From Escherichia coli (GTDB lineage Bacteria; Pseudomonadota; Gammaproteobacteria; Enterobacterales; Enterobacteriaceae), in assembly GCF_050920415.1 (NCBI RefSeq), contig NZ_CP169309.1: a stretch of 64,000 nt of DNA. One strand, written 5' to 3'. The position numbers and the translations under genes are program-made. The first letter of the stretch is position 1. Every line of letters starts with the position of its first letter. Positions 23,310-48,207 of this stretch are shown in pieces. The notes below the pieces were generated by a model. The model was given only the letters and a program-made list of their open reading frames with translations, did not search any database and had not been told where the DNA came from.

Positions 23310-24437
23310 TTAACGGCGTCTATAGCCTTCCTCTAGCACCGCTTGTGTTCGAACGAGTTCATCCGCGAGTCGTTTTTCATCAGGTAGTTGCATCTTATAT
23401 TCGCTTGCCAGAACGGTGTTAGGCAAACCAGCCAGTGCATAATGTGCTTCTCCGACTCCTTTTTCTGCACAGAGAACCAGACCGATGGGCGGATTTTCAT
23501 CCGGTAGCGTCCAGTGCTCTTTGGCGTAGTTGAGATACATATTCATCTGTCCGGCATCGCTATAGCTGAATTTGCCCACTTTTAGATCGACGATTAGCAG
23601 GCAGCGTAAACGGCGGTGGAAAAACAGCAGATCGACACGAAACCAGTTGTCATCAATGCGTAACCTTCGCTGTCGACCAACAAAGGCAAAATCATCCCCA
23701 AGTTCCAGCATGAAATCCATCAGGTGGTTGATCAGCGCCTCCTCAAAATCGGATTCTGAGTATTCATCTTTCAATTCCAAAAATTCGAGCACAAAGGGAT
23801 CGCGTATCGCCTGTTGCGGAAGAATATGCGTCTCGGCAGGGGCGTGTTGTTGCAGCATGGCTGATTTGTCATATGACAGTAGTGTCCGCTCATAAAATTG
23901 GGTCGCAATTTGCCGCTCTAGCTGGCGGACAGACCAACCACAGCGGAGCGCCTCTTTTTCATAAAAGCTGCGGGCGTCAGCGTTTTTAACGGAAAGTAGA
24001 CGGACGTAGGTGGACCAGGGCAGTGGGAAGGATTTGGCAGACAGCGTCTGCCAAATCTTTGCCGATGGGAATTCTGCAGACGGTGTCTGCGGAATTCCCA
24101 ATGGTGTTAATTCGCCAGACACTGTCTGGCGAATTTCAACATGTTGAAAAAAGAGGTAAAAAAGCCTCATTTGGCGTAAGTTTTTTGCAGAGAACCCACG
24201 CTTATACCTTAGACTTAAATCCTTTGAGAGCCGTTTGATAAGCTGTGCACCATAAGCCGCTCTGGCCTCGCCGCCTTGTTCAAATTCGACAATCCGTCGA
24301 CCAATTTCCCAGTATGTCGCGGTCATTAACGCGTTAACGCTACGTACCGTTTCCGTGCGGGCGCTATCGACCAGGTGAATAATACCGTCGTGGATTTGCT
24401 GGTAGCCTGCTGTGGTTCCTTCTGAGAGCGATTCCAT
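23310..24437 (-). CDS. yhcG: DUF1016/YhcG-family protein with C-terminal PD-(D/E)xK nuclease-like motifs
   Basis: 375-aa ORF; C-terminal ...RIDDNWFRVDLLFF...LLIVDLKVGKF resembles a PD-(D/E)xK core; contains in-frame tandem repeats (IRQTVSGELTPLG / IPQTPSAEFPSAK / IWQTLSAKSFPLPW). Confidence 0.85.
   Translation of the reverse strand: MESLSEGTTAGYQQIHDGIIHLVDSARTETVRSVNALMTATYWEIGRRIVEFEQGGEARAAYGAQLIKRLSKDLSLRYKRGFSAKNLRQMRLFYLFFQHVEIRQTVSGELTPLGIPQTPSAEFPSAKIWQTLSAKSFPLPWSTYVRLLSVKNADARSFYEKEALRCGWSVRQLERQIATQFYERTLLSYDKSAMLQQHAPAETHILPQQAIRDPFVLEFLELKDEYSESDFEEALINHLMDFMLELGDDFAFVGRQRRLRIDDNWFRVDLLFFHRRLRCLLIVDLKVGKFSYSDAGQMNMYLNYAKEHWTLPDENPPIGLVLCAEKGVGEAHYALAGLPNTVLASEYKMQLPDEKRLADELVRTQAVLEEGYRRR
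24031..24135. repeat. Three tandem 39-bp-spaced palindromic repeats inside yhcG coding sequence
   Basis: Units GATTTGGCAGACAGCGTCTGCCAAATC (24031-24057), GGGAATTCTGCAGACGGTGTCTGCGGAATTCCC (24068-24099), AATTCGCCAGACACTGTCTGGCGAATT (24109-24135); period 39 bp = 13 codons. Confidence 0.8.
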
Positions 24438-24635
24438 TATCTGTCCCTTTATATGGCGCTGCGTTGAATAATGGGATCAGCTATACGCCGGGCATCTGCC
24501 GGTAACAATCCAGGTGGGCTTGTTACATGGGTTTTCTTCACGTTATGCGAGGCGCTTTCCAGCAATTGTGCTGTAACGTTGTGCTGAAGATGAAGCAAAT
24601 AAAAAGGCCGGAGCGGGCGCATCCGACCAGAATTT

Positions 24636-25805
24636 TCAGGAAGTTTCTCTTGCTGTCACTACGCCATTTTGCGCAGCCCACAGATTCACATCTTCCTTAC
24701 GAATGGCGGCGGCCATCATGCCGGGGAATAAATCAGGGGTACAGGCAAAGGAGGGAATACCCATGGCGGCGAGTTTTCCTGCCAGTGACCGGTCGTAAAA
24801 CGGTGCGCCTTCGTCGCTTAAGGCCAGCAGGGTAACCACCTGTACGCCGGACTGAATCAACTCACTGGCGCGTTGCAACAGATTGCGTTCCACACCACCT
24901 TCGTAGAGGTCGGAAATCAGCACCAGAATGGTATTACGCGGATCGCGAATCAAAGACTGGCAGTAACCTACCGCGCGGTTGATGTCGGTGCCGCCGCCCA
25001 GCTGCACGCCAAACAGCAGCTCTACCGGATCGTCGAGCTTCTCTGTCATATCAACCACTGCGGTGTCGAAAACCACCAGATGCGTTTTTACCGCCGGGAG
25101 CGATGCCATTACTGCGCCAAAAATACTGGAATAGACCACCGAGGAGGCCATCGACCCACTCTGGTCGATACATAAAATGATCTCCTTTTGCGTGCGTTGA
25201 GACTTGCGCCCGTAGCCGATTAACGTTTCAGGAACAATACTTTTGTACTCTTCCTGCCAGTGGCGCAGGTTGGCGCGAATGGTGCGCTGCCAGTCAATTT
25301 CCGCGTGGCGCGGGCGACGATTACGTACCGCACGATTAAGAGCGCCGCTTACCGCGCTACGCATTGGCTCTTCAAGCTGTTTCATCAATTGCTCGACAAC
25401 TTTACGCACCACAATCCTGGCGGTTTCTTTGGTTTTGGCCGGAATTACGCCATTCAGCGACATCAGCGTGGAGACCAGATGAACATCAGGCTGGACGTTT
25501 GCCAGCATCTCTGGCTCCAGCAACATACTGTGCAAATTAAGACGTTCAAAGGCGTCTTTTTGCATCACCTGAACCACAGAAGAGGGGAAATACTGGCGAA
25601 TATCACCCAGCCAGCGAGCGACTTTGGGTGACGATCCACCCGTGCCGCCGCGTAATCCATGTTTACCGTCTGGCTGATAGAGCGCCGCCAGCGCGGCATC
25701 AATCGCGGACTCTCTGGCATCCAGCGCCACGTTACAGGCATTGTCGGCATCTTCTCCAAGGATCAGACGCCAGCGGCGCAGCCGTTCCATCTCGTTACTC
25801 GACAT
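24636..25805 (-). CDS. von Willebrand factor A (vWA) domain protein with MIDAS motif; YehP-like
   Basis: 389-aa ORF; DxSxS MIDAS motif in ILCIDQSGSM; last gene of the five-gene operon; overlaps upstream gene by 11 nt; SD-like GGGAA before ATG. Confidence 0.8.
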   Translation of the reverse strand: MSSNEMERLRRWRLILGEDADNACNVALDARESAIDAALAALYQPDGKHGLRGGTGGSSPKVARWLGDIRQYFPSSVVQVMQKDAFERLNLHSMLLEPEMLANVQPDVHLVSTLMSLNGVIPAKTKETARIVVRKVVEQLMKQLEEPMRSAVSGALNRAVRNRRPRHAEIDWQRTIRANLRHWQEEYKSIVPETLIGYGRKSQRTQKEIILCIDQSGSMASSVVYSSIFGAVMASLPAVKTHLVVFDTAVVDMTEKLDDPVELLFGVQLGGGTDINRAVGYCQSLIRDPRNTILVLISDLYEGGVERNLLQRASELIQSGVQVVTLLALSDEGAPFYDRSLAGKLAAMGIPSFACTPDLFPGMMAAAIRKEDVNLWAAQNGVVTARETS

Positions 25806-28044
25806 GATTTTCCCTTTCGTGTGGTGGCAAAGCCAGAATGCGGCGCAGTAGCGGCAGCATTAACGCGGCACGCTGTTCATCCCATATACCGCTGGTCTCT
25901 TCTTGCTGCGCGACACGCTCGCCCTGCGCGGCGCGTTCGCCTAACTGGCGGCGTTCCGGGCTGGAAAAACGGCCGAATGTCCGCCGCAGCATCGGCAGGA
26001 TCCGGGTGAAGTGATTGTCGTTCAGGCCGCTTAGCCAGGCATCGATCAACTGCCATAATTCGCTATTGTGCAGTAGCACCATCGCGCTGTCGTTGAGGAA
26101 ACCTTCCGCCCATGCGGCACTTTCCGCCGGGGGATTGGCTGGCGATAGCGCCAGGTTCATCAGCGTGGTGATCCGTTCTGTCGTTAACGTTTGCAGATCA
26201 AACAACAGGCGCGTCGCCGTTCCGCGAAGCAGCGCGTGTGCGGTACTGCCCTCTGCCAGCACCATCAACGCCTGCAACCAGCCCGCCAACAGATCTTCGT
26301 TATCCAGCAACCGCAGCGCGGCGTGAGCGTCGATAACTTTTTCTCTCATACTGGCGGCGCTGTCGTCGTTGAGCGCCGAACAGGCACCGGGTAGGGCGAT
26401 GGCGGCGCGCGGGGCGAGGCTCATCAGTACCTGCATTACCATACCAGAGTCGGTCTGGCGCACGTTGCCGTAGCGGACAATCGCCACCAGCGGTGCCAGG
26501 GCTTCCAGCAACTGTTCGATATTGCCCTGAGTGGCAGCCAGTGATTCCAGTGTATTGGCGATGGGGGCAATCGCGGCCTGTAAATCGGCCAGTAGCACTT
26601 GTTGGATAAGCTTTGCCAGTTCCGGCAGCGTGCTGGCGTATTGCGCCCTCACAATGGCATAGCGGGAGCTGGCCTGCTCAATGCTGTTACCCCAACGGCT
26701 GGCGGTAATGATGTTCATTGCCAGTGCCGGTTCCCAGCGCAGCGACCAGACTTCGTGGAACGTCCCTTTGCTGTTATTTCCTTGTCCAGCCAGACGGCCC
26801 CAGGAAATGTCGAGTAAGGTCAGGCGATGCAGTAAATGGCTACGCGCCAGATCGCCGGGTTTGCGCAGATCAAGATCCAGCACTTTTTCGCTGGCTTCTG
26901 CCTTCAGGCGCAGCGTTTTTTGCTGTTGCGTAATGTCGCGTTGGAGCGGCACGACGGGCGTATCATCCGGTACGCTTCCCAGCGCGTCGCCGACAATTAA
27001 CTTCTGGCGAATCATCTGCATTGGCGCGCTTTCGCCCATACACACTACGGTTTGCAGCGCTTCGCAAAGTTCGTCAAGCCCCGGCTGCGGGTGATGGCGC
27101 ATAATCGCCAGCGTCTGCGCCAGCCGCGCCGCTTCGATAATGTGGGCGCTGGAACAGTCGAGATCGGCTTCGCGAAACAGCCTTGCCGCGCGTGACAGCC
27201 AGCCGATATCGCGGTGAGAAGCGCCCTGATAACGCCACAGATGATCGTACCATTCCGGTGACACCACCCCTGCGCCATAACCGCTGGCGCGGCTTAACGC
27301 CTCGTAGCTCCAGGGCGTCCAGGCTGCCGCGACCTTGCACTTCGGCAAATTTTTCAGCAGTTCGTTATCATTCTTTGCGGGCGGCAGGTTTTCCAGCGCC
27401 GGAACGTGCCACGCACCGCAGACTACCGCGATGCGCGAGAAGCCCTCTTTTTTCGCCTGACGTAGCGTCTTGCGCATATACGCTTCACGCAGTTGATCTC
27501 TGGCTGAGTTTCGGGCTTCGGGAGTTGCCTGGCGTAGGGCAATCATCGCCTCGCGAATCGCCTCGAACAGAGACAAATCATCTTCGCGTTCCTCTACTCT
27601 GTGGCTCCACCAGCTTTCCCCATCGGTGTAACCGGCGGCGCGGCCCAGCCAGTCCAGCGGATCGCCGTCGGGACTGGCTTCAACGGCATCATCGTCATCG
27701 CTCTCTTTTTCGTCATCAAGCGCGAACTGATGACTGATGGGCAAGTCCATAAAGCGCACGGCGATATTTTGCTCAAAACCATAGCGCAGCGCCTGCCATT
27801 CCGGGGAGAACGCCGCAAAGGGGTAAAACGCGGCGTGATGTGAGTCGTCCGGGGCATAAATCAGTAGCGCGACCGGCGGTTGCATCTGTTCATGCTGCAT
27901 GAAAGGCAGGATGGATTCGCCGTCGGGCGGCCCTTCCACCAGCAGGCAGTCGGGCTGTAGCGTCTCCAGCGCCTTTCGCAGGCTGCGCGCGCAGCCAGGG
28001 CCATGGTGACGGATGCCAAACAAATGAACGGTTTGTTCAGTCAT
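25795..28044 (-). CDS. Large uncharacterised protein (749 aa) with N-terminal TraB/PrgY/GumN (TIKI)-like motifs; YehM-like by size and position
   Basis: N-terminal VHLFGIRHHGPG...DCLLVEGPPD and later RIAVVCGAWHVPAL resemble the two conserved motif blocks of the TraB/TIKI family; long helical C-terminal region; domain call from motif recognition only. Confidence 0.7.
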   Translation of the reverse strand: MTEQTVHLFGIRHHGPGCARSLRKALETLQPDCLLVEGPPDGESILPFMQHEQMQPPVALLIYAPDDSHHAAFYPFAAFSPEWQALRYGFEQNIAVRFMDLPISHQFALDDEKESDDDDAVEASPDGDPLDWLGRAAGYTDGESWWSHRVEEREDDLSLFEAIREAMIALRQATPEARNSARDQLREAYMRKTLRQAKKEGFSRIAVVCGAWHVPALENLPPAKNDNELLKNLPKCKVAAAWTPWSYEALSRASGYGAGVVSPEWYDHLWRYQGASHRDIGWLSRAARLFREADLDCSSAHIIEAARLAQTLAIMRHHPQPGLDELCEALQTVVCMGESAPMQMIRQKLIVGDALGSVPDDTPVVPLQRDITQQQKTLRLKAEASEKVLDLDLRKPGDLARSHLLHRLTLLDISWGRLAGQGNNSKGTFHEVWSLRWEPALAMNIITASRWGNSIEQASSRYAIVRAQYASTLPELAKLIQQVLLADLQAAIAPIANTLESLAATQGNIEQLLEALAPLVAIVRYGNVRQTDSGMVMQVLMSLAPRAAIALPGACSALNDDSAASMREKVIDAHAALRLLDNEDLLAGWLQALMVLAEGSTAHALLRGTATRLLFDLQTLTTERITTLMNLALSPANPPAESAAWAEGFLNDSAMVLLHNSELWQLIDAWLSGLNDNHFTRILPMLRRTFGRFSSPERRQLGERAAQGERVAQQEETSGIWDEQRAALMLPLLRRILALPPHERENHVE

Positions 28045-28061
28045 AGTGGTTGCCTTGCTGA

Positions 28062-29156
28062 TTACACAATTTCGCGGCAGGCGCGATAGAGATCGTTCCA
28101 GTCGCTGCGCTCTTTGACGATAGTTTCCAGATATTCACGCCATACCACGTCGTCCTGCACGGGATCTTTTACCACCGCGCCGATAAGGCTTGCGGCGATA
28201 TCCCGCGGATGCAGCACGCCGTCGCCAAAATGGCCCGCCAGCGCCATACCGTTGTTGATAACGGAGATCGCCTCCGCGGTGCTGAGAGTACTGGTTGGCG
28301 ACTTAATTTTCGTTTTGCCGTCAACCGTCAGGCCGTTTCGCAGTTCGCGGAAGATTTGCACGACTCGCTGGATCTCTTTAAGCGCTGGCGGTTTGGCAGG
28401 AAGTGCCAGCGCCTGACCCAGTTCGGCGACGCGGCGAGTGACAATGTTAATCTCTTCTTCTTCGCTGGCGGGTACGGGCAAAATGACCGTGTTGAAACGA
28501 CGTTTAAGCGCGGAAGAAAGCTCGTTAACGCCTTTATCCCGGTTGTTGGCGGTGGCGATAACGTTAAAGCCGCGCGTCGCCTGGACCTCTTCATTCAGTT
28601 CGGGGATAGGCAGCGTTTTTTCCGACAGGATCGTGATCAGCGTGTCCTGAACATCAGCAGGAATACGCGTCAGCTCTTCTACGCGTGCAATCTGCCCGCG
28701 CGCCATCGCCCGCATCAACGGACTTTCTACCAGCGCCAAACGTGACGGACCTTTAGAGAGCAACTCCGCGTAGTTCCAGCCATAACGCATTTGTTCTTCA
28801 CCGGTGCCTGCGGTGCCCTGAATAATTAACGTTGAGTCGCCGCTGATGGCAGCCGCCAGATGTTCAGATACCCAGGATTTCGCAGTGCCGGGTACGCCAT
28901 ACAACAGCAGTGCGCGATCGGTTGGCAGCGTGGCAACGGCGGTTTCGATAATCCGCCGGTTGCCGATATATTTCGGCGTGACCTCAAAGCCATTTTCCAG
29001 CTGCCCGCCCAACAGATAGGTGGCGACGGACCATGGAGAAATGGCCCAGTTTTCCGGGCGCGGATGAGTATCGTTTTTTTGCAGCTCATCCAGTTCTTCA
29101 GCAAATTGTTGTTCGGCATGTCGGCGTAAAACGGCGGCAGTAGCGGTAGCATTCAT
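28062..29156 (-). CDS. MoxR-type AAA+ ATPase (YehL-like)
   Basis: 364-aa ORF; Walker A GVPGTAKS; sensor-1-like FNVIATANNRD; ATGA overlap with upstream gene. Confidence 0.82.
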   Translation of the reverse strand: MNATATAAVLRRHAEQQFAEELDELQKNDTHPRPENWAISPWSVATYLLGGQLENGFEVTPKYIGNRRIIETAVATLPTDRALLLYGVPGTAKSWVSEHLAAAISGDSTLIIQGTAGTGEEQMRYGWNYAELLSKGPSRLALVESPLMRAMARGQIARVEELTRIPADVQDTLITILSEKTLPIPELNEEVQATRGFNVIATANNRDKGVNELSSALKRRFNTVILPVPASEEEEINIVTRRVAELGQALALPAKPPALKEIQRVVQIFRELRNGLTVDGKTKIKSPTSTLSTAEAISVINNGMALAGHFGDGVLHPRDIAASLIGAVVKDPVQDDVVWREYLETIVKERSDWNDLYRACREIV

Positions 29157-30757
29157 AAAGTGGTTTCTCCGACAAAAAGCGAATTAAGTTGAATTCGGTT
29201 CGCCAGCGCGGCGCTCAGGGCAGTAAAGGCTGCCTCGCAATAAGGCGTTTGTTGTGCGTCGTGCGGCCACTTGTCAATGACATCATTGAGGACTTCGGGG
29301 GCCAGCAGGCAGGCGAAATCACTCATCACATGGCGCAGGGCGTAGTCAAAGCGCGCGGAATCATATTTCACCCAACGGTGTAGCTCCGTGACCATTTGCT
29401 GGCTCAGGCGCAGGCTAAAGAGCGACGCATCCAGCGGTAACAGGCTGATGTAGCGATGTAAATGTTCGCCGCCCACCACTGAGAACAATGACCGTAACAT
29501 CGGCTCGTGTTCTTCTACAGGCAGACATTGCAAAAGCTCAAAGGCGTTAATCTTCACGCCTGCAGGATGATGAATGCTCATTCCGACGGGCAGCATGGCG
29601 AGAAACGCCTGCGCCCACTGCGGATTTTTTTCGCGCAGTACGGCGTGATACCAGGCGCGCAGTAGCGCCTTCTGCCAGTCGGTTTTCCCGGCCCAGCGCA
29701 GCAGTTCAACGGGGGTAGCCTGCAGTTGCGTTTGCCACCAGTCGAGCGGAACCGCTGCAACTATCTGATACAGCCACCATGCGCGCTGGCCCAACTTTTC
29801 GCCTTTGGGCTTAGTTTCTTCCAGCGCATCGGCCTTCCACTCTGGTAAGAACGCCTCCGGGGCATCAAGGGCGACGTGCAGCATTTTTTCTTTGCCGGAT
29901 AAGCCTTTTAGCCTTTCAAGTAAGGTCTCAGGAGCGGGGGATGAACTGAGCAACGGCGCTAACCGAGACTTCATGCGCGAGATCCAGGCGCTTTCCGGCA
30001 GACAACACAGTAACCGTGCCGCAGTTTGCCGCACCTCTTTGCTGCGATCGGATAATGTCTGTTCCAGAAAGGCTTCGTCGTGTTGGGAGATCTCCACTTC
30101 CAGCACAGCCAGCAGCTGTGCGCGTTCGCGGGCATCCAGCGAACTCATCTCCTGCGCCAGCCGATCGCGACCCTGTTCCGGGGCGCGAATGCGCATTTGC
30201 GTCAGATATTGCAGACGCTGTTCGGACGTGCCGTGCAGCCACATTTCTTCATCCAGCGGAGCGTCAACGGAGGCAAGAAAATAGCGCCAGTCGGCGTTAA
30301 TTTGCGCCAGCCAGCGCCCGCGAGCGCCGAGGACATTGGGCAGAATGCCGCGTATTGATGGATTTTGTACGCCGTAATTCAGCAGTGCCGGTAACAGCAG
30401 GGGCGGAGAAAGAAGCTGACGCTGGACCAGGTGATCAAGCGCTGACCACAGTAAACGCGGCGGCCCTTCTGCCAGCAACAGATGCAGCAGTCCCGCAAAA
30501 GCCGGGTTGTTTATTGGCTCGGCATTTTCTTTATCGATTTCCGGCAGCGGTGCGGGGTCAATCGCCTGCGGCACCCAGCCAGCCAGATGGCAGAGCGCCA
30601 GAACGCCCGCCGAGCGCAGTAGCTGTTGCTCTGCGGATGTGTTATTCGCCAGTTCAGACAGTAACAGCCCAATCTCACTTTGCGACGCCGACGGTGTGAA
30701 CGCTTTTTTGTCTGTGCCGAGTAGCGCTGTGCGGGTTAAATTTTGCCATTCGTTCAT
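29153..30757 (-). CDS. Uncharacterised protein (about 534 aa), helical, no recognised catalytic motif
   Basis: Long ORF (ORF track 29153-30778); preferred start ATG at 30757, which has GGAGG 7 nt upstream and forms an ATGA overlap with the stop of the SWIM gene. Confidence 0.7.
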   Translation of the reverse strand: MNEWQNLTRTALLGTDKKAFTPSASQSEIGLLLSELANNTSAEQQLLRSAGVLALCHLAGWVPQAIDPAPLPEIDKENAEPINNPAFAGLLHLLLAEGPPRLLWSALDHLVQRQLLSPPLLLPALLNYGVQNPSIRGILPNVLGARGRWLAQINADWRYFLASVDAPLDEEMWLHGTSEQRLQYLTQMRIRAPEQGRDRLAQEMSSLDARERAQLLAVLEVEISQHDEAFLEQTLSDRSKEVRQTAARLLCCLPESAWISRMKSRLAPLLSSSPAPETLLERLKGLSGKEKMLHVALDAPEAFLPEWKADALEETKPKGEKLGQRAWWLYQIVAAVPLDWWQTQLQATPVELLRWAGKTDWQKALLRAWYHAVLREKNPQWAQAFLAMLPVGMSIHHPAGVKINAFELLQCLPVEEHEPMLRSLFSVVGGEHLHRYISLLPLDASLFSLRLSQQMVTELHRWVKYDSARFDYALRHVMSDFACLLAPEVLNDVIDKWPHDAQQTPYCEAAFTALSAALANRIQLNSLFVGETTL

Positions 30758-32076
30758 TGTGCGCCTCCGGTTGCCCAAATCACGCTACCGGCAAGCCAGG
30801 CGCTACAGGGCGTCAGCTGCTGACCATCCCATTCCCCCATTAGCATAAACGGCGCGCCGCCGCTGGCCGCCAGTAACCGCCAACCCTCGTCCGACGACAG
30901 GTGCGTCGGTAAGTGCTGGCCCTGTGTCGAGACGAATCGCCAGCCGCTCTCGTGCGGGTAAATCAATATTTCGCTTACTCGCAGCGGCAGAGGCCATTGC
31001 CAGGGATTCGCGCTAAGCCGCTGCGCCATGTCATGCAGCGCGTCCGGGAGGGGTAATTCTGCAAGCGGGAATCTTTCACCGCGGGTAAACGGCTCCACAA
31101 TCCGCGCCCGTAGCGGTGATGCGCCAGGGAAAAAGGCAAGCGCGCCCTGGCAGACTTGCCCGGTGATAAAGTGCTGGGGAAAGTTTTTACCACCGTGTGA
31201 ATAGTCCAGCAGTAGCGCGGTGCGGTGGCTCTTTTCTCCGTACAGCCAGACCCGGCGTCGCCACAGATTATTCTCTTCTTGCGCGCTTTGGCCTAAGACC
31301 TGCCAGTTATCAAGGCAGGTTAGTCCGTCAGCGATGTCATGTTTATCCGGGGTTATTCCCAATGCTGCATGGAGATCGCTAAGTTGTGCCGGGGATAACA
31401 TTTGTTGCTGGCGCCAGGCGTCAATAATCAGCTGTAGCTGCCCCAGTTCTTTGCACAGGCTCGATGGCCATACCTCGGCGGTAGTAAAAAGAGTGGTCAG
31501 ATTGTTCAGGCGAGCGGCAATTCCCGGTAGTTGAGCGTCGACCATGCGGGCGGCGATCCCGGCAAAAGGCAACTGTTGTGCAGAGATCTGCGCCAGACCG
31601 TGGCGGATCAGGTCGTGCATCCACTGTTCGAGGAAATCCAGCCCCGCCGTCATTTTTTGGTTGCGTGCCGCTTCCCGTTTGGCGGCAGCCTGCGGGTCGG
31701 CAGCTTTTGCCTCAGCCTGCTCTTTCTTTTCTTCTTTGCGAACCGCTCGCTGCTGGCGCGAGGTTAGCCACTCGCTTACCCATTCCGGCGGCTCGCCAGC
31801 GGTGAAACTTGCGGTGTGTTGCACCTGGAGCAAAAGCAACGCAAGGCTATGTTTACAGGGGAATTTACGGCTGGGGCAGGAACATTTACAGGCCAGATCC
31901 TGCCTGTCGACCCGTACCTGATAAGGGCGGGAGCCGCTGCCTTTACATTCTCCCCAGAACGCGGTCTCGCTATATCCCAGCGTCGGCCATTTTGCGGGGG
32001 CAACCAGGCCACGAGCCGCTTTAACCGAGGCGTCATCGGGCGCCAGGGCTTGCACTGATTCAACGGTCAGTTCCAT
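30754..32076 (-). CDS. SWIM zinc-finger domain protein (YehQ-like), first gene of operon
   Basis: 440-aa ORF; CxCxnCxH signature in DLACKCSCPSRKFPCKHSLALL; remainder unrecognised. Confidence 0.75.
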   Translation of the reverse strand: MELTVESVQALAPDDASVKAARGLVAPAKWPTLGYSETAFWGECKGSGSRPYQVRVDRQDLACKCSCPSRKFPCKHSLALLLLQVQHTASFTAGEPPEWVSEWLTSRQQRAVRKEEKKEQAEAKAADPQAAAKREAARNQKMTAGLDFLEQWMHDLIRHGLAQISAQQLPFAGIAARMVDAQLPGIAARLNNLTTLFTTAEVWPSSLCKELGQLQLIIDAWRQQQMLSPAQLSDLHAALGITPDKHDIADGLTCLDNWQVLGQSAQEENNLWRRRVWLYGEKSHRTALLLDYSHGGKNFPQHFITGQVCQGALAFFPGASPLRARIVEPFTRGERFPLAELPLPDALHDMAQRLSANPWQWPLPLRVSEILIYPHESGWRFVSTQGQHLPTHLSSDEGWRLLAASGGAPFMLMGEWDGQQLTPCSAWLAGSVIWATGGAQ

Positions 32077-32239
32077 TACAATTCTCTATTGGCGTGGGGA
32101 AATCGATGGGGTCAAGGAGGCGTTAAGCAAAGCAGGAGGAGACTGTTTTCCGTAACAGCGTATTGCGCGTCCATCGCAAATTTGTAGTGAGTATAGCGGG
32201 CGGTAAATTCAGGAAACAATGGCGGATAGCGGAAAGTGT

Positions 32240-32298
32240 AGTTTTTCGGAAAAAGATAACTTTATCCCGTGTAACCCGTTTTAAGCGGGCTACACGGG
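32240..32298 (-). terminator. Putative terminator downstream of gltD
   Basis: Minus-strand hairpin CCCGTGTAGCCCGCTTAAAACGGGTTACACGGG 8 nt after gltD stop, followed after a spacer by a T5 run; U-tract not directly adjacent. Confidence 0.4.
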
Positions 32299-32308
32299 AG
32301 GCTGCAAT

Positions 32309-46773: not shown

Positions 46774-48207
46774 TCAAACGAGCTGTTTACGCTGGTTTGA
46801 CGGCGGAATGGATAAAGACTCTCGGTACTTCGCAACAGTGCGGCGTGCCACCATGATACCTTGTTCTGACAGCAAAGAGGTTAACTTGCTGTCGCTTAGC
46901 GGTTTCGCTGGGTTTTCCGCCGCGATTAATTTCTTCACCAGCGCACGAATTGCCGTTGAGGAAGCTTCGCCGCCGCCCTCGGTATTGACGTGACTGGAAA
47001 AGAAATACTTCAGTTCAAAAATGCCTCGTGGACTATGCAGGTATTTTTGCGTGGTCACGCGAGATATCGTCGATTCATGCATTTCGACAGCCTGGGCGAT
47101 ATCGGCCAGTACCATCGGTTTCATATATTCTTCGCCTTGCTCAAAGAAGGCTTGCTGCTGTTCAACGATACAGCGACTCACGCGTAGTAGCGTATCGTTA
47201 CGGCTTTCCAGACTCTTGATCAACCATTTGGCATCCTGCAGATTGCTGCGGATAAACTGGCTGTCACCGTCGTTGCGCGCGTTATTGCACATCGAGGCGT
47301 AGTGCTGGTTGATTTGCAGACGCGGAATGCTGTCGCTGTTGAGTTCTACTATCCAGTGACCGTTATGCTTACGCACCAGTACATCTGGAATGACATACTC
47401 CGGTTCGCCAGTCTGGATCGACTGTCCGGGGCGTGGATCGAGCGACTGGATCAGATTGACGGCTTCTTTCAGCACATCTTCTTTCAGTCGCGTGACGCGC
47501 ATTAAGGTACGGAAGTCGTGATTGGCTAACAGATCGAGATGATCGCTAATGATCAGTCTCGCCTCTTCCAGCCACGGCGTAGTTTTATCGAATTGGGAGA
47601 GTTGGATCAGCAGGCAGTCACGCAGATCTTTCGCCGCTACGCCGACCGGATCAAACCGTTGGATCCGCTTCAGGACGGCTTCAACTTCATCGATGTCGAT
47701 TTCTTCATCGCCCATACTTTCGAGAATATCTTCCAGCGGAACAGTCAGATAACCGGTGTCATCAACGGCATCGACGATAGAGGTAGCAATAGCGCGGTCA
47801 GTGTCGGAAAACGGTGTCAGCTCGACTTGCCACATCAGGTAATCTTGCAAGGTCTGCGTTGTTTCGCCCTGATAGACCGGCAGCTCGTCGTCAATGTAGT
47901 CACCGCTGGTGCCGGAGGGTGTACCAGCGGTGTAAATGGTGTCCCAACTGGCATCGAGCGGCAGCTCTTCCGGCATCTCTTTTTGTTCGAGCGCGTCGGC
48001 GGTGTCCAGTGTTTCACTGTCTTGCGTTTCGCGGGTGTCGATTTCTTCATGAGTGTCGATTTGCTCAAGCAGCGGATTACTCTCCAGCGCCTGCTGTAGC
48101 TCCTGCTGAAGTTCCAGCGTCGACAACTGCAACAGACGAATAGCCTGTTGGAGCTGTGGCGTCATCGCCAGTTGTTGGCTAAGCCTGAGTTGCAAACCTT
48201 GCTTCAT
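46774..48207 (-). CDS. rpoN: RNA polymerase sigma-54 factor
   Basis: 477-aa ORF with Gln-rich N-terminus and C-terminal RpoN box ([10 protein letters not shown]). Confidence 0.97.

Follow-up and report, generated by a model that had tools for sequence, protein, structure and literature searches.

A predicted five-gene operon encoding a MoxR-type AAA+ ATPase and a vWA protein in a variable interval of the Escherichia coli genome

Few AAA+ systems are as widespread, or as poorly understood, as the pairs formed by MoxR ATPases and von Willebrand factor A (vWA) proteins. Here, we describe a block of five genes, referred to below as "the cluster," within a 64,000-nucleotide (nt) stretch of an Escherichia coli genome (contig NZ_CP169309.1) that was analyzed as a whole and is called "the window." The block lies on the minus strand and is predicted to encode, in order, a SWIM zinc-finger protein, a DUF5691 protein, a MoxR-type AAA+ ATPase, a DUF5682 protein, and a CoxE-type vWA protein (Table 1). 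An initial annotation, made from the sequence alone, had proposed five co-directional open reading frames (ORFs) here as a candidate uncharacterized system; all five were found where it had placed them, and none is interrupted. A related set of genes, yehLMPQ, belongs to the E. coli core genome (5,209 of 5,426 genomes, 96%). In strain K-12 it comprises yehL (MoxR ATPase), yehM, yehP (vWA), and yehQ (SWIM), with yehF (WGR) and yehH/yehI (DUF4132) just upstream.

Table 1. Coordinates of the five genes and of associated features in the window
Feature	Position	Strand	Length	Remark
Gene 1, SWIM zinc-finger protein	30754..32076	-	440 aa	uninterrupted ORF
Gene 2, DUF5691 protein	29153..30757	-	534 aa	length from RefSeq ATG
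Gene 3, predicted MoxR-type AAA+ ATPase	28062..29156	-	364 aa	AAA_5, YehL-like
Gene 4, DUF5682 protein	25795..28044	-	749 aa	
Gene 5, CoxE-type vWA protein	24636..25805	-	389 aa	
Intrinsic terminator-like hairpin and U-run	24601..24628	-		right after vWA stop; operon end
Upstream intergenic region	32077..32308	-	232 nt	belongs to variable segment
Accessory segment	24493..32308	.	7.8 kb	replaces gltF-yhcA-yhcD-yhcE-yhcF of K-12

The gene block and its conservation across phyla

The SWIM/DUF5691 and DUF5691/AAA+ junctions are ATGA overlaps, in the first of which the DUF5691 start overlaps the SWIM stop. A 17-nt gap separates the AAA+ and DUF5682 genes, and the DUF5682 and vWA genes overlap by 11 nt. 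When loci are compared, SWIM/DUF5691 and DUF5682/vWA both have a median junction of -4 nt. The hairpin beyond the vWA gene (RNAfold, -14.2 kcal/mol) has the stem GGUCGGA...UCCGGCC, followed by UUUUUAUUU. Because the genes overlap or abut and a terminator stands at their end, we predict from the sequence that they form one translationally coupled operon. The longest ORF for DUF5691 has a TTG start at 30778, which would give 541 aa. The five ORFs are real genes and not chance ORFs. The initial annotation had raised disruption of the ORFs as an objection; all five are intact in the window, and the copy in strain MFDS1022581, which is 100% identical to window positions 24400-32300, carries the same five genes in RefSeq without pseudogene flags.

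Presence and synteny were surveyed, as the initial annotation had suggested, in the best 80 of at least 561 loci, with one genome per species scanned. The order SWIM-DUF5691-AAA-DUF5682-vWA, on one strand, recurs in 62 of these 80 loci and in at least ten phyla. Taxa with this order include Gamma- and Betaproteobacteria, Desulfovibrionaceae, Cyanobacteria, Chloroflexi, Bacteroidota, Verrucomicrobia, Planctomycetes, Armatimonadetes, Deinococcales, Victivallales, and Acidobacteria. Operons of this type are also carried by Variovorax, Acidovorax, Pedobacter, or Mucilaginibacter strains. Exceptions are mostly truncated contigs and only a few are genuine; the adjacent vWA gene is missing in loci L020 and L028. 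The DUF5682 family itself comprises at least 8,000 clusters at 90% identity, and 4,445 (E <= 1e-3) or 1,469 (E <= 1e-30) clusters at 50% identity.

Clustering of all flanking ORFs revealed no further conserved gene, and what recurred were generic ABC ATPases and histidine kinases. Immediate neighbors lie equally on either strand, and a Pfam census of 144 neighbors was heterogeneous. Because no other neighbor is conserved across the loci, the five-gene unit appears to be autonomous.

The five proteins evolve at very different rates. The mean fraction of positions identical to the E. coli residue is 0.72 for the AAA+ ATPase, 0.63 for the vWA protein, 0.48 for DUF5682, 0.37 for SWIM, and 0.26 for DUF5691 (59 orthologues for this fastest-evolving component), and the ranking is the same when E. 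coli is compared with Klebsiella. That the engine is highly constrained while the accessory proteins change fast suggests that SWIM and DUF5691 carry specificity.

Carriage by mobile elements was considered and rejected: the module was found in one dubious record among 50,697 phages, in one of 2.9 million IMG/VR contigs, and on 44 of 72,556 plasmids, mostly megaplasmids or mislabeled chromosomes. In PHROG, the DUF5682 and vWA proteins had matches to two families without annotation (phrog_30700, E 5e-35, and phrog_31592, E 1e-71), which probably stem from over-extended prophage calls around yeh-type genes.

Additional genes adjoin the operon in a few loci. In three Bacteroidota loci (L040:13411-16335, L043:13500-16130, and L065:12131-15094), the next gene after vWA, in the same orientation, is a DUF4132 (MolR/YehI-type) gene coding for ~900-990 aa; it may represent a sixth component that is optional. 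In a single metagenome-assembled case (L088:6093-10273), genes for RtcB, an RF-1-domain (PrfH-like) protein, and an FtsH-like M41 protease follow the operon on the same strand; these neighbors form an RNA/ribosome-repair-type module.

Predicted properties of the five proteins

Pfam profiles upheld the MoxR, vWA, and SWIM assignments of the initial annotation (AAA_5, E 2e-38; VWA_CoxE, E 3.6e-52; SWIM, E 1.2e-6). All of the motifs that it had quoted, namely, the SWIM signature CKCSCPSRKFPCKH, Walker A GVPGTAKS, sensor-1 ATAN, and the DQSGS of the metal-ion-dependent adhesion site (MIDAS), were found and are conserved in orthologues. No family was assigned to the cluster proteins by NCBIfam, and profile searches of PDB with the DUF5682, SWIM, DUF5691, and vWA proteins returned no match.

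In the ATPase, Walker A spans G87-S94 (nt 28875-28898) and is followed by a Walker B-like E160/E161, which reads h-h-h-h-E-E instead of D-E, by sensor-1 N204, and by R219/R220. These motifs are conserved at >=95% in 56 orthologues. The nearest solved relatives are the AAA domains of midasin (E 1e-16) and NorQ (E 2e-5), and there is a weak partial match to bpMoxR (E 0.0011). The product of gene 3 is thus predicted to be a MoxR-type AAA+ ATPase with intact catalytic motifs. Its tie to YehL consists of pairwise similarity (41% identity, E 7e-78) and of shared DUF5682 and vWA neighbors.

The vWA gene lies two genes downstream of the ATPase gene in the same operon, and this pairing is kept in 62 of the 80 loci. 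Its vWA domain (residues 149-359) has a complete MIDAS, formed by D214-x-S216-x-S218 (residues 214-218; nt 25152-25166), T273, and D299, residues that are conserved at >=95% in 56 orthologues. The N-terminal 150 residues fall outside the vWA domain and constitute a putative helical extension.

The fourth protein matches its Pfam family at E 6.7e-268. Its AlphaFold2 model (pLDDT 90.1, pTM 0.85) has an N-terminal alpha/beta domain (residues ~1-260, nt 27265-28044), followed by an all-helical solenoid (263-736). Residues R12-H13-H14, E37, and G210/H213 are invariant, and H13/H14, E37, and H213 are so in 59 DUF5682 sequences that include YehM. In the model, these His and Glu residues directly follow beta-strands 5-11, 33-36, and 204-210; in the TIKI superfamily, the catalytic His-Glu pair is found at the ends of core strands (PMC6254334). 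Three of the four reference structures named as superfamily members in that paper are among the matches of the model, which points to a TIKI/TraB fold, with a core of parallel beta-strands and flanking helices, for the N-terminal domain. Where RRSP has an E-x-H motif, the position of the first Glu is held by R12. We interpret the protein as a putative hydrolase on a helical scaffold.

In the SWIM protein, the finger (C65-x-C67...C74-x-H76, nt 31849-31884) has the CxCxnCxH signature with C65, C67, C74, and H76 invariant in 50 orthologues, and the basic face formed by R70, K71, and K75 is also invariant. The finger is followed by a long helical hairpin and helical bundle (98-249), and the C-terminal part consists of two domains rich in beta structure (253-330 and 363-435). 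Among structural matches ZSWIM8 ranks first, and the N-terminal half is ZSWIM8-like; the beta domains resemble OB/HIN/SSB-like folds, a likeness that is modest. DUF5691 (PF18944, E 4.7e-121) has a weak HEAT match at residues 237-258 and is probably an alpha-helical HEAT-like repeat protein. Kinship of DUF5691 with DUF4132 (YehI/MolR) or with the C-terminal solenoid of DUF5682 was considered and rejected at hhalign probabilities of <2%, although single-sequence templates reduce the sensitivity of the first two of the relatedness tests.

The locus in E. coli and Klebsiella

The cluster is flanked upstream by gltB and gltD, on the same strand, and downstream by yhcG and then the divergent nan operon. 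When compared with K-12 by blastn, homology stops at 24492 and restarts exactly at the gltD stop codon, 32309; the corresponding K-12 interval (L003 1618-8772) is filled by fimbrial genes, with an IS5 within yhcE. The GC content of the coding block is 0.577, versus 0.523 for the window. The cluster, at >=80% coverage, is present in 33 of 5,426 complete E. coli genomes (0.6%) and is always chromosomal. The gltD-yhcG interval is a replacement hotspot. In ~1,100 complete genomes, neither edge of the query was matched. In the larger group of carriers (e.g., SMS-3-5), the five genes are intact and only a remnant of yhcG remains, beside two small hypothetical genes.

Klebsiella huaxiensis carries the cluster at the same position, in the order gltBD, five genes, nanQ-nanK. 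Protein identities between E. coli and Klebsiella are 93% for AAA, 88% for vWA, 77% for DUF5682, 69% for SWIM, and 56% for DUF5691, which is within the range of the flanking core genes (gltD, 93%; nanK, 69%; nanQ, 62.5%). This divergence is compatible with a long stay at the locus, most E. coli having lost or replaced the cluster, and it would also allow transfer by flanking homology. No integrase or transposase adjoins the cluster, and no structured RNA was found in or around it at Rfam gathering thresholds.

A promoter scan of the intergenic region upstream of the SWIM gene found no sigma-70 consensus promoter on the minus strand. A 14-bp hairpin (32265-32299, minus strand, -26.7 kcal/mol) begins 10 nt past the gltD stop, outside the sequence shared with K-12; its U-run is 12 nt off, and it may be the gltBD terminator or an element of the REP (repetitive extragenic palindromic) type. 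At the other end, the yhcG gene directly downstream (PDDEXK/DUF1016, window 23310-24437, minus strand) matches the PADLOC candidate single-gene defense family PDC-S02 very strongly (E 2.5e-135). Because K-12 has yhcG too, this gene is independent of the cluster.

Candidate functions and comparison with known systems

We tentatively favor, with less than even confidence, the reading that the autonomous operon encodes a multi-subunit, ATP-driven machine for capture and cleavage, or capture and remodeling, of a target. In MoxR-vWA systems, the vWA protein captures a peptide and the MoxR protein remodels it (PMC7159879). By analogy with other such pairs, the vWA MIDAS would grip an acidic residue or peptide of the target, and the AAA+ ring would supply the mechanical work to remodel it. 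The chemical step would fall to the TIKI/TraB-like domain of DUF5682, which most likely acts as a peptidase or esterase, with the solenoid as an assembly platform. SWIM and DUF5691 would act as specificity or sensor subunits, possibly recognizing nucleic acid or a nucleic-acid-bound protein. Since the operon is not accompanied by a client gene, it would act on a ubiquitous cellular macromolecule or on something foreign, and for the same reason, surveillance or quality control seems more likely than a dedicated role as an assembly chaperone.

Several points weigh against this capture-and-cleave reading. The physical association of the five proteins is read from synteny, and in three loci (L019, L051, and L067, from Acaryochloris marina and two Bacteroidota metagenome-assembled genomes [MAGs]) a full-length DUF5682 gene has none of its four partners within a distance of 10 kb; these may sit elsewhere in the genomes, or DUF5682 may act alone there. 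The TraB/TIKI-like assignment of the initial annotation stands for the superfamily fold and fails for the Pfam TraB family, whose profile (PF01963, TraB_PrgY_gumN) does not match DUF5682 even at E <= 10. A profile of 59 DUF5682 sequences also matched no solved TIKI-family member, and because there is no match at the sequence level, DUF5682 is placed in the superfamily at the fold level only. A catalytic role of the His/Glu/His set is suggested by position in the model, and some members of the superfamily are non-enzymatic (ChaN binds heme, and PMT lacks the motif). Finally, the very high conservation of the ATPase and vWA proteins across phyla would be explained as well if the operon encoded a housekeeping chaperone with a conserved client.

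A possible, though rather unlikely, alternative gives this machine a specific biological role and does not contradict the favored model: that of an anti-phage or anti-mobile-element conflict system, in which SWIM and DUF5691 would sense a molecule derived from the invader, MoxR and vWA together would form a threshold switch, and the TIKI/TraB-like peptidase would be released as the effector of abortive infection or of cleavage of an invader protein. The patchy distribution in E. coli, with different cargo at the locus in other strains, fits such a system, whereas the E. coli and Klebsiella copies share a locus and have diverged like flanking core genes, the paralogue yehLMPQ belongs to the E. 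coli core genome, and Bilophila wadsworthia commonly carries the cluster. The putative sensors evolve fast and the engine is conserved, yet ATPase identities of 67-81% across phyla are unusual for immune genes. The parts list of MoxR, vWA, peptidase, and sensor is that of ternary conflict systems (PMC7159879; PMC12839542), and the paralogues yehL and yehM are silenced by H-NS/StpA (PMC3686432), as foreign DNA is. Near-absence from phages, rarity on plasmids, and the lack of flanking integrases and transposases speak against this role.

The surroundings of the operon are equivocal. In E. coli the cluster adjoins yhcG, with its strong PDC-S02 match, and yhcG is itself variable. Co-occurrence with defense islands, which the initial annotation had proposed to check, extended to a few neighbors, and most neighbors are ordinary genes. 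Only 3 of 29 immediate neighbors are defense-like (IetA-like, L014:69-1379, E 3e-40; MADS mad2, L039:14942-16333, E 3e-50; and a weak PtuB-like HNH, L053:13819-15234, E 7e-11), and in the Pfam census, which ordinary genes dominate, TIR_2 occurs twice and nSTAND3 two or three times, too few to conclude from. In PADLOC-DB v2, four of the five proteins have no match and the ATPase has only a P-loop-level match to IetA (E 0.0017). The initial annotation had also asked whether the cluster matches a system of established function; no defense-system model matched, and no description of the architecture was found in the literature searched. If an immune or quality-control role is true, it would represent a new effector logic for MoxR-vWA systems.

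More speculative, and improbable on present evidence, is a fuller version in which the operon encodes an ancient and hitherto undescribed class of prokaryotic surveillance machine. Here, a SWIM/OB receptor and a HEAT-like adaptor would recognize foreign or damaged nucleoprotein and pass it to a midasin-like MoxR/MIDAS motor, which would feed or activate a TIKI-type protease. If this reading is true, the cluster would be the bacterial equivalent of those eukaryotic machines that extract and degrade targets under the guidance of a receptor, and the role of the core yehLMPQ genes would be explained too.

We consider it unlikely that the operon encodes a dedicated maturation or cofactor-insertion chaperone like NorQ-NorD, CbbQ-CbbO, CoxD-CoxE, or CobS-CobT-CobN. 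On that view, DUF5682 would hold a metal or tetrapyrrole in its TIKI/ChaN-like domain, and MoxR and vWA would pass this cofactor to a client enzyme whose gene lies elsewhere, or would remodel that enzyme. The genes for known MoxR-vWA chaperones stand beside those of their clients, whereas no neighbor is conserved across the 80 loci, and those systems contain nothing comparable to SWIM or DUF5691. Furthermore, the invariant His/Glu/His set fits hydrolytic members of the superfamily better than it fits ChaN, and the patchy distribution in E. coli would be strange if the operon served to mature a conserved enzyme. If a chaperone role were nonetheless true, it would reveal a new class of client.

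Least probable, and in our view very unlikely, is a DNA-damage or nucleic-acid machine under SOS-type control, in which SWIM/OB would bind damaged DNA or stalled nucleoprotein and the AAA+, vWA, and hydrolase components would remove or process a trapped protein. The invariant basic face of the SWIM finger and the OB/HIN/SSB-like domains would suit this role, but the OB/HIN similarity is modest and repair genes nearby are not conserved. DUF4132 genes, which directly follow vWA in the three Bacteroidota loci, and the WGR and DUF4132 genes upstream of yehLMPQ in K-12 hint at such a connection, although only 3 of ~41 loci show the association with DUF4132. A LexA-box-like sequence, CTGT-N8-ACAG, lies at 32143-32158, 67-82 nt upstream of the SWIM start, but two matches occur in the window (the other at 47158-47173) versus 0.74 expected, a number reached in 15 of 100 shuffles and not significant. 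No such box stands upstream of the Klebsiella orthologue or of any further proteobacterial locus examined; a single additional in-range match lies in L036 (a MAG labeled "bacterium UBA7470"). LexA/SOS control was rejected on both grounds, the insignificance of the box in the window and its lack of conservation in orthologous loci.

The YehL branch of MoxR proteins has been without an assigned function since it was named, even though yehLMPQ is nearly universal in E. coli. The analysis defines the full conserved unit, five genes in fixed order in at least ten phyla, and makes concrete assignments for its parts: DUF5682 as a putative hydrolase of TIKI/TraB fold on a scaffold, and the SWIM protein as ZSWIM8-like with OB-like domains. 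A row of hypothetical proteins thereby becomes a tractable hypothesis, with named putative catalytic residues, in a genetically easy organism. The genes themselves are already cataloged, with the domains of unknown function in RefSeq and Pfam and the YehL branch named in MoxR reviews. In the literature searched, the five-gene architecture and a TIKI fold or function for DUF5682 are undescribed, and DUF5682 and DUF5691 go unmentioned.

The closest known relative is yehLMPQ. YehL defines one of seven MoxR subfamilies and is uncharacterized (PMC3893208), and the function of yehP is unknown (PMC2790909). The cluster shares with yehLMPQ the internal order ATPase-DUF5682-vWA, a SWIM-finger protein, and the invariant TIKI-like residues of YehM. 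In addition to the ATPase, DUF5682 is similar to YehM (27% identity, E 6e-42) and the vWA protein to YehP (37% identity, E 2e-80). The yeh operon has four genes, with its SWIM protein, YehQ (614 aa), last, whereas the cluster has five, including DUF5691. The initial annotation had proposed a yehLMP(Q)-like paralogous module at a different locus and with a different gene order. Locus and order do differ, the cluster lying between gltD and yhcG with SWIM first and not last, and paralogy extends to the core triad. It does not extend to the remaining proteins: similarity between SWIM and YehQ is restricted to the region around the zinc finger (hhalign probability <1%, no hidden Markov model [HMM] match), and BLAST, hhalign, and HMM searches found no counterpart of DUF5691 in the yeh region. 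That YehQ might be a fusion of SWIM and DUF5691, or remotely homologous to them, was likewise rejected, as BLAST, hhalign, and HMM comparisons were negative beyond the finger. We thus consider the cluster and yehLMPQ to be paralogous systems and not the same operon, with three of five genes homologous. The +1 frameshift cassette reported for yehP (L002:11968-13104) is absent from the vWA gene at 24636-25805 (codons GCG GTA GGT TAC TGC CAG).

Like RavA-ViaA, NorQ-NorD, CbbQ-CbbO, and CoxD-CoxE, the cluster places a MoxR-clade ATPase beside a vWA/MIDAS partner, which is here of CoxE type. Those systems have two components and lie beside client genes, whereas the cluster has three further partners (the TIKI-like scaffold, SWIM, and DUF5691) and no conserved client neighbor. 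Compared with the TIKI/TraB/PrgY/erythromycin-esterase/ChaN superfamily, DUF5682 differs in being fused to a ~480-residue helical solenoid within a MoxR-vWA operon, a context undescribed for the superfamily. Midasin (Rea1/Mdn1) is one giant polypeptide that acts on pre-ribosomes, and ZSWIM8 works with cullin-RING ligases; both resemble single parts of the cluster only, and no orthology is implied.

Among known systems, the MoxR-vWA ternary conflict systems (Kaur et al. 2020, PMC7159879) share with the cluster the logic of a MoxR/vWA switch, a peptidase-type effector, and a variable sensor, as well as a preference for complex bacteria with large genomes. The paper that describes them makes no mention of SWIM, TraB, TIKI, or YehL. 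They have a VMAP, iSTAND, beta-propeller, or FtsH component, none of which Pfam detects in the five cluster proteins, and their effectors are fused to vWA, whereas the vWA protein of the cluster carries no extra domain. Finally, the ternary systems are diversifying, whereas the ATPase and vWA proteins of the cluster are exceptionally conserved.

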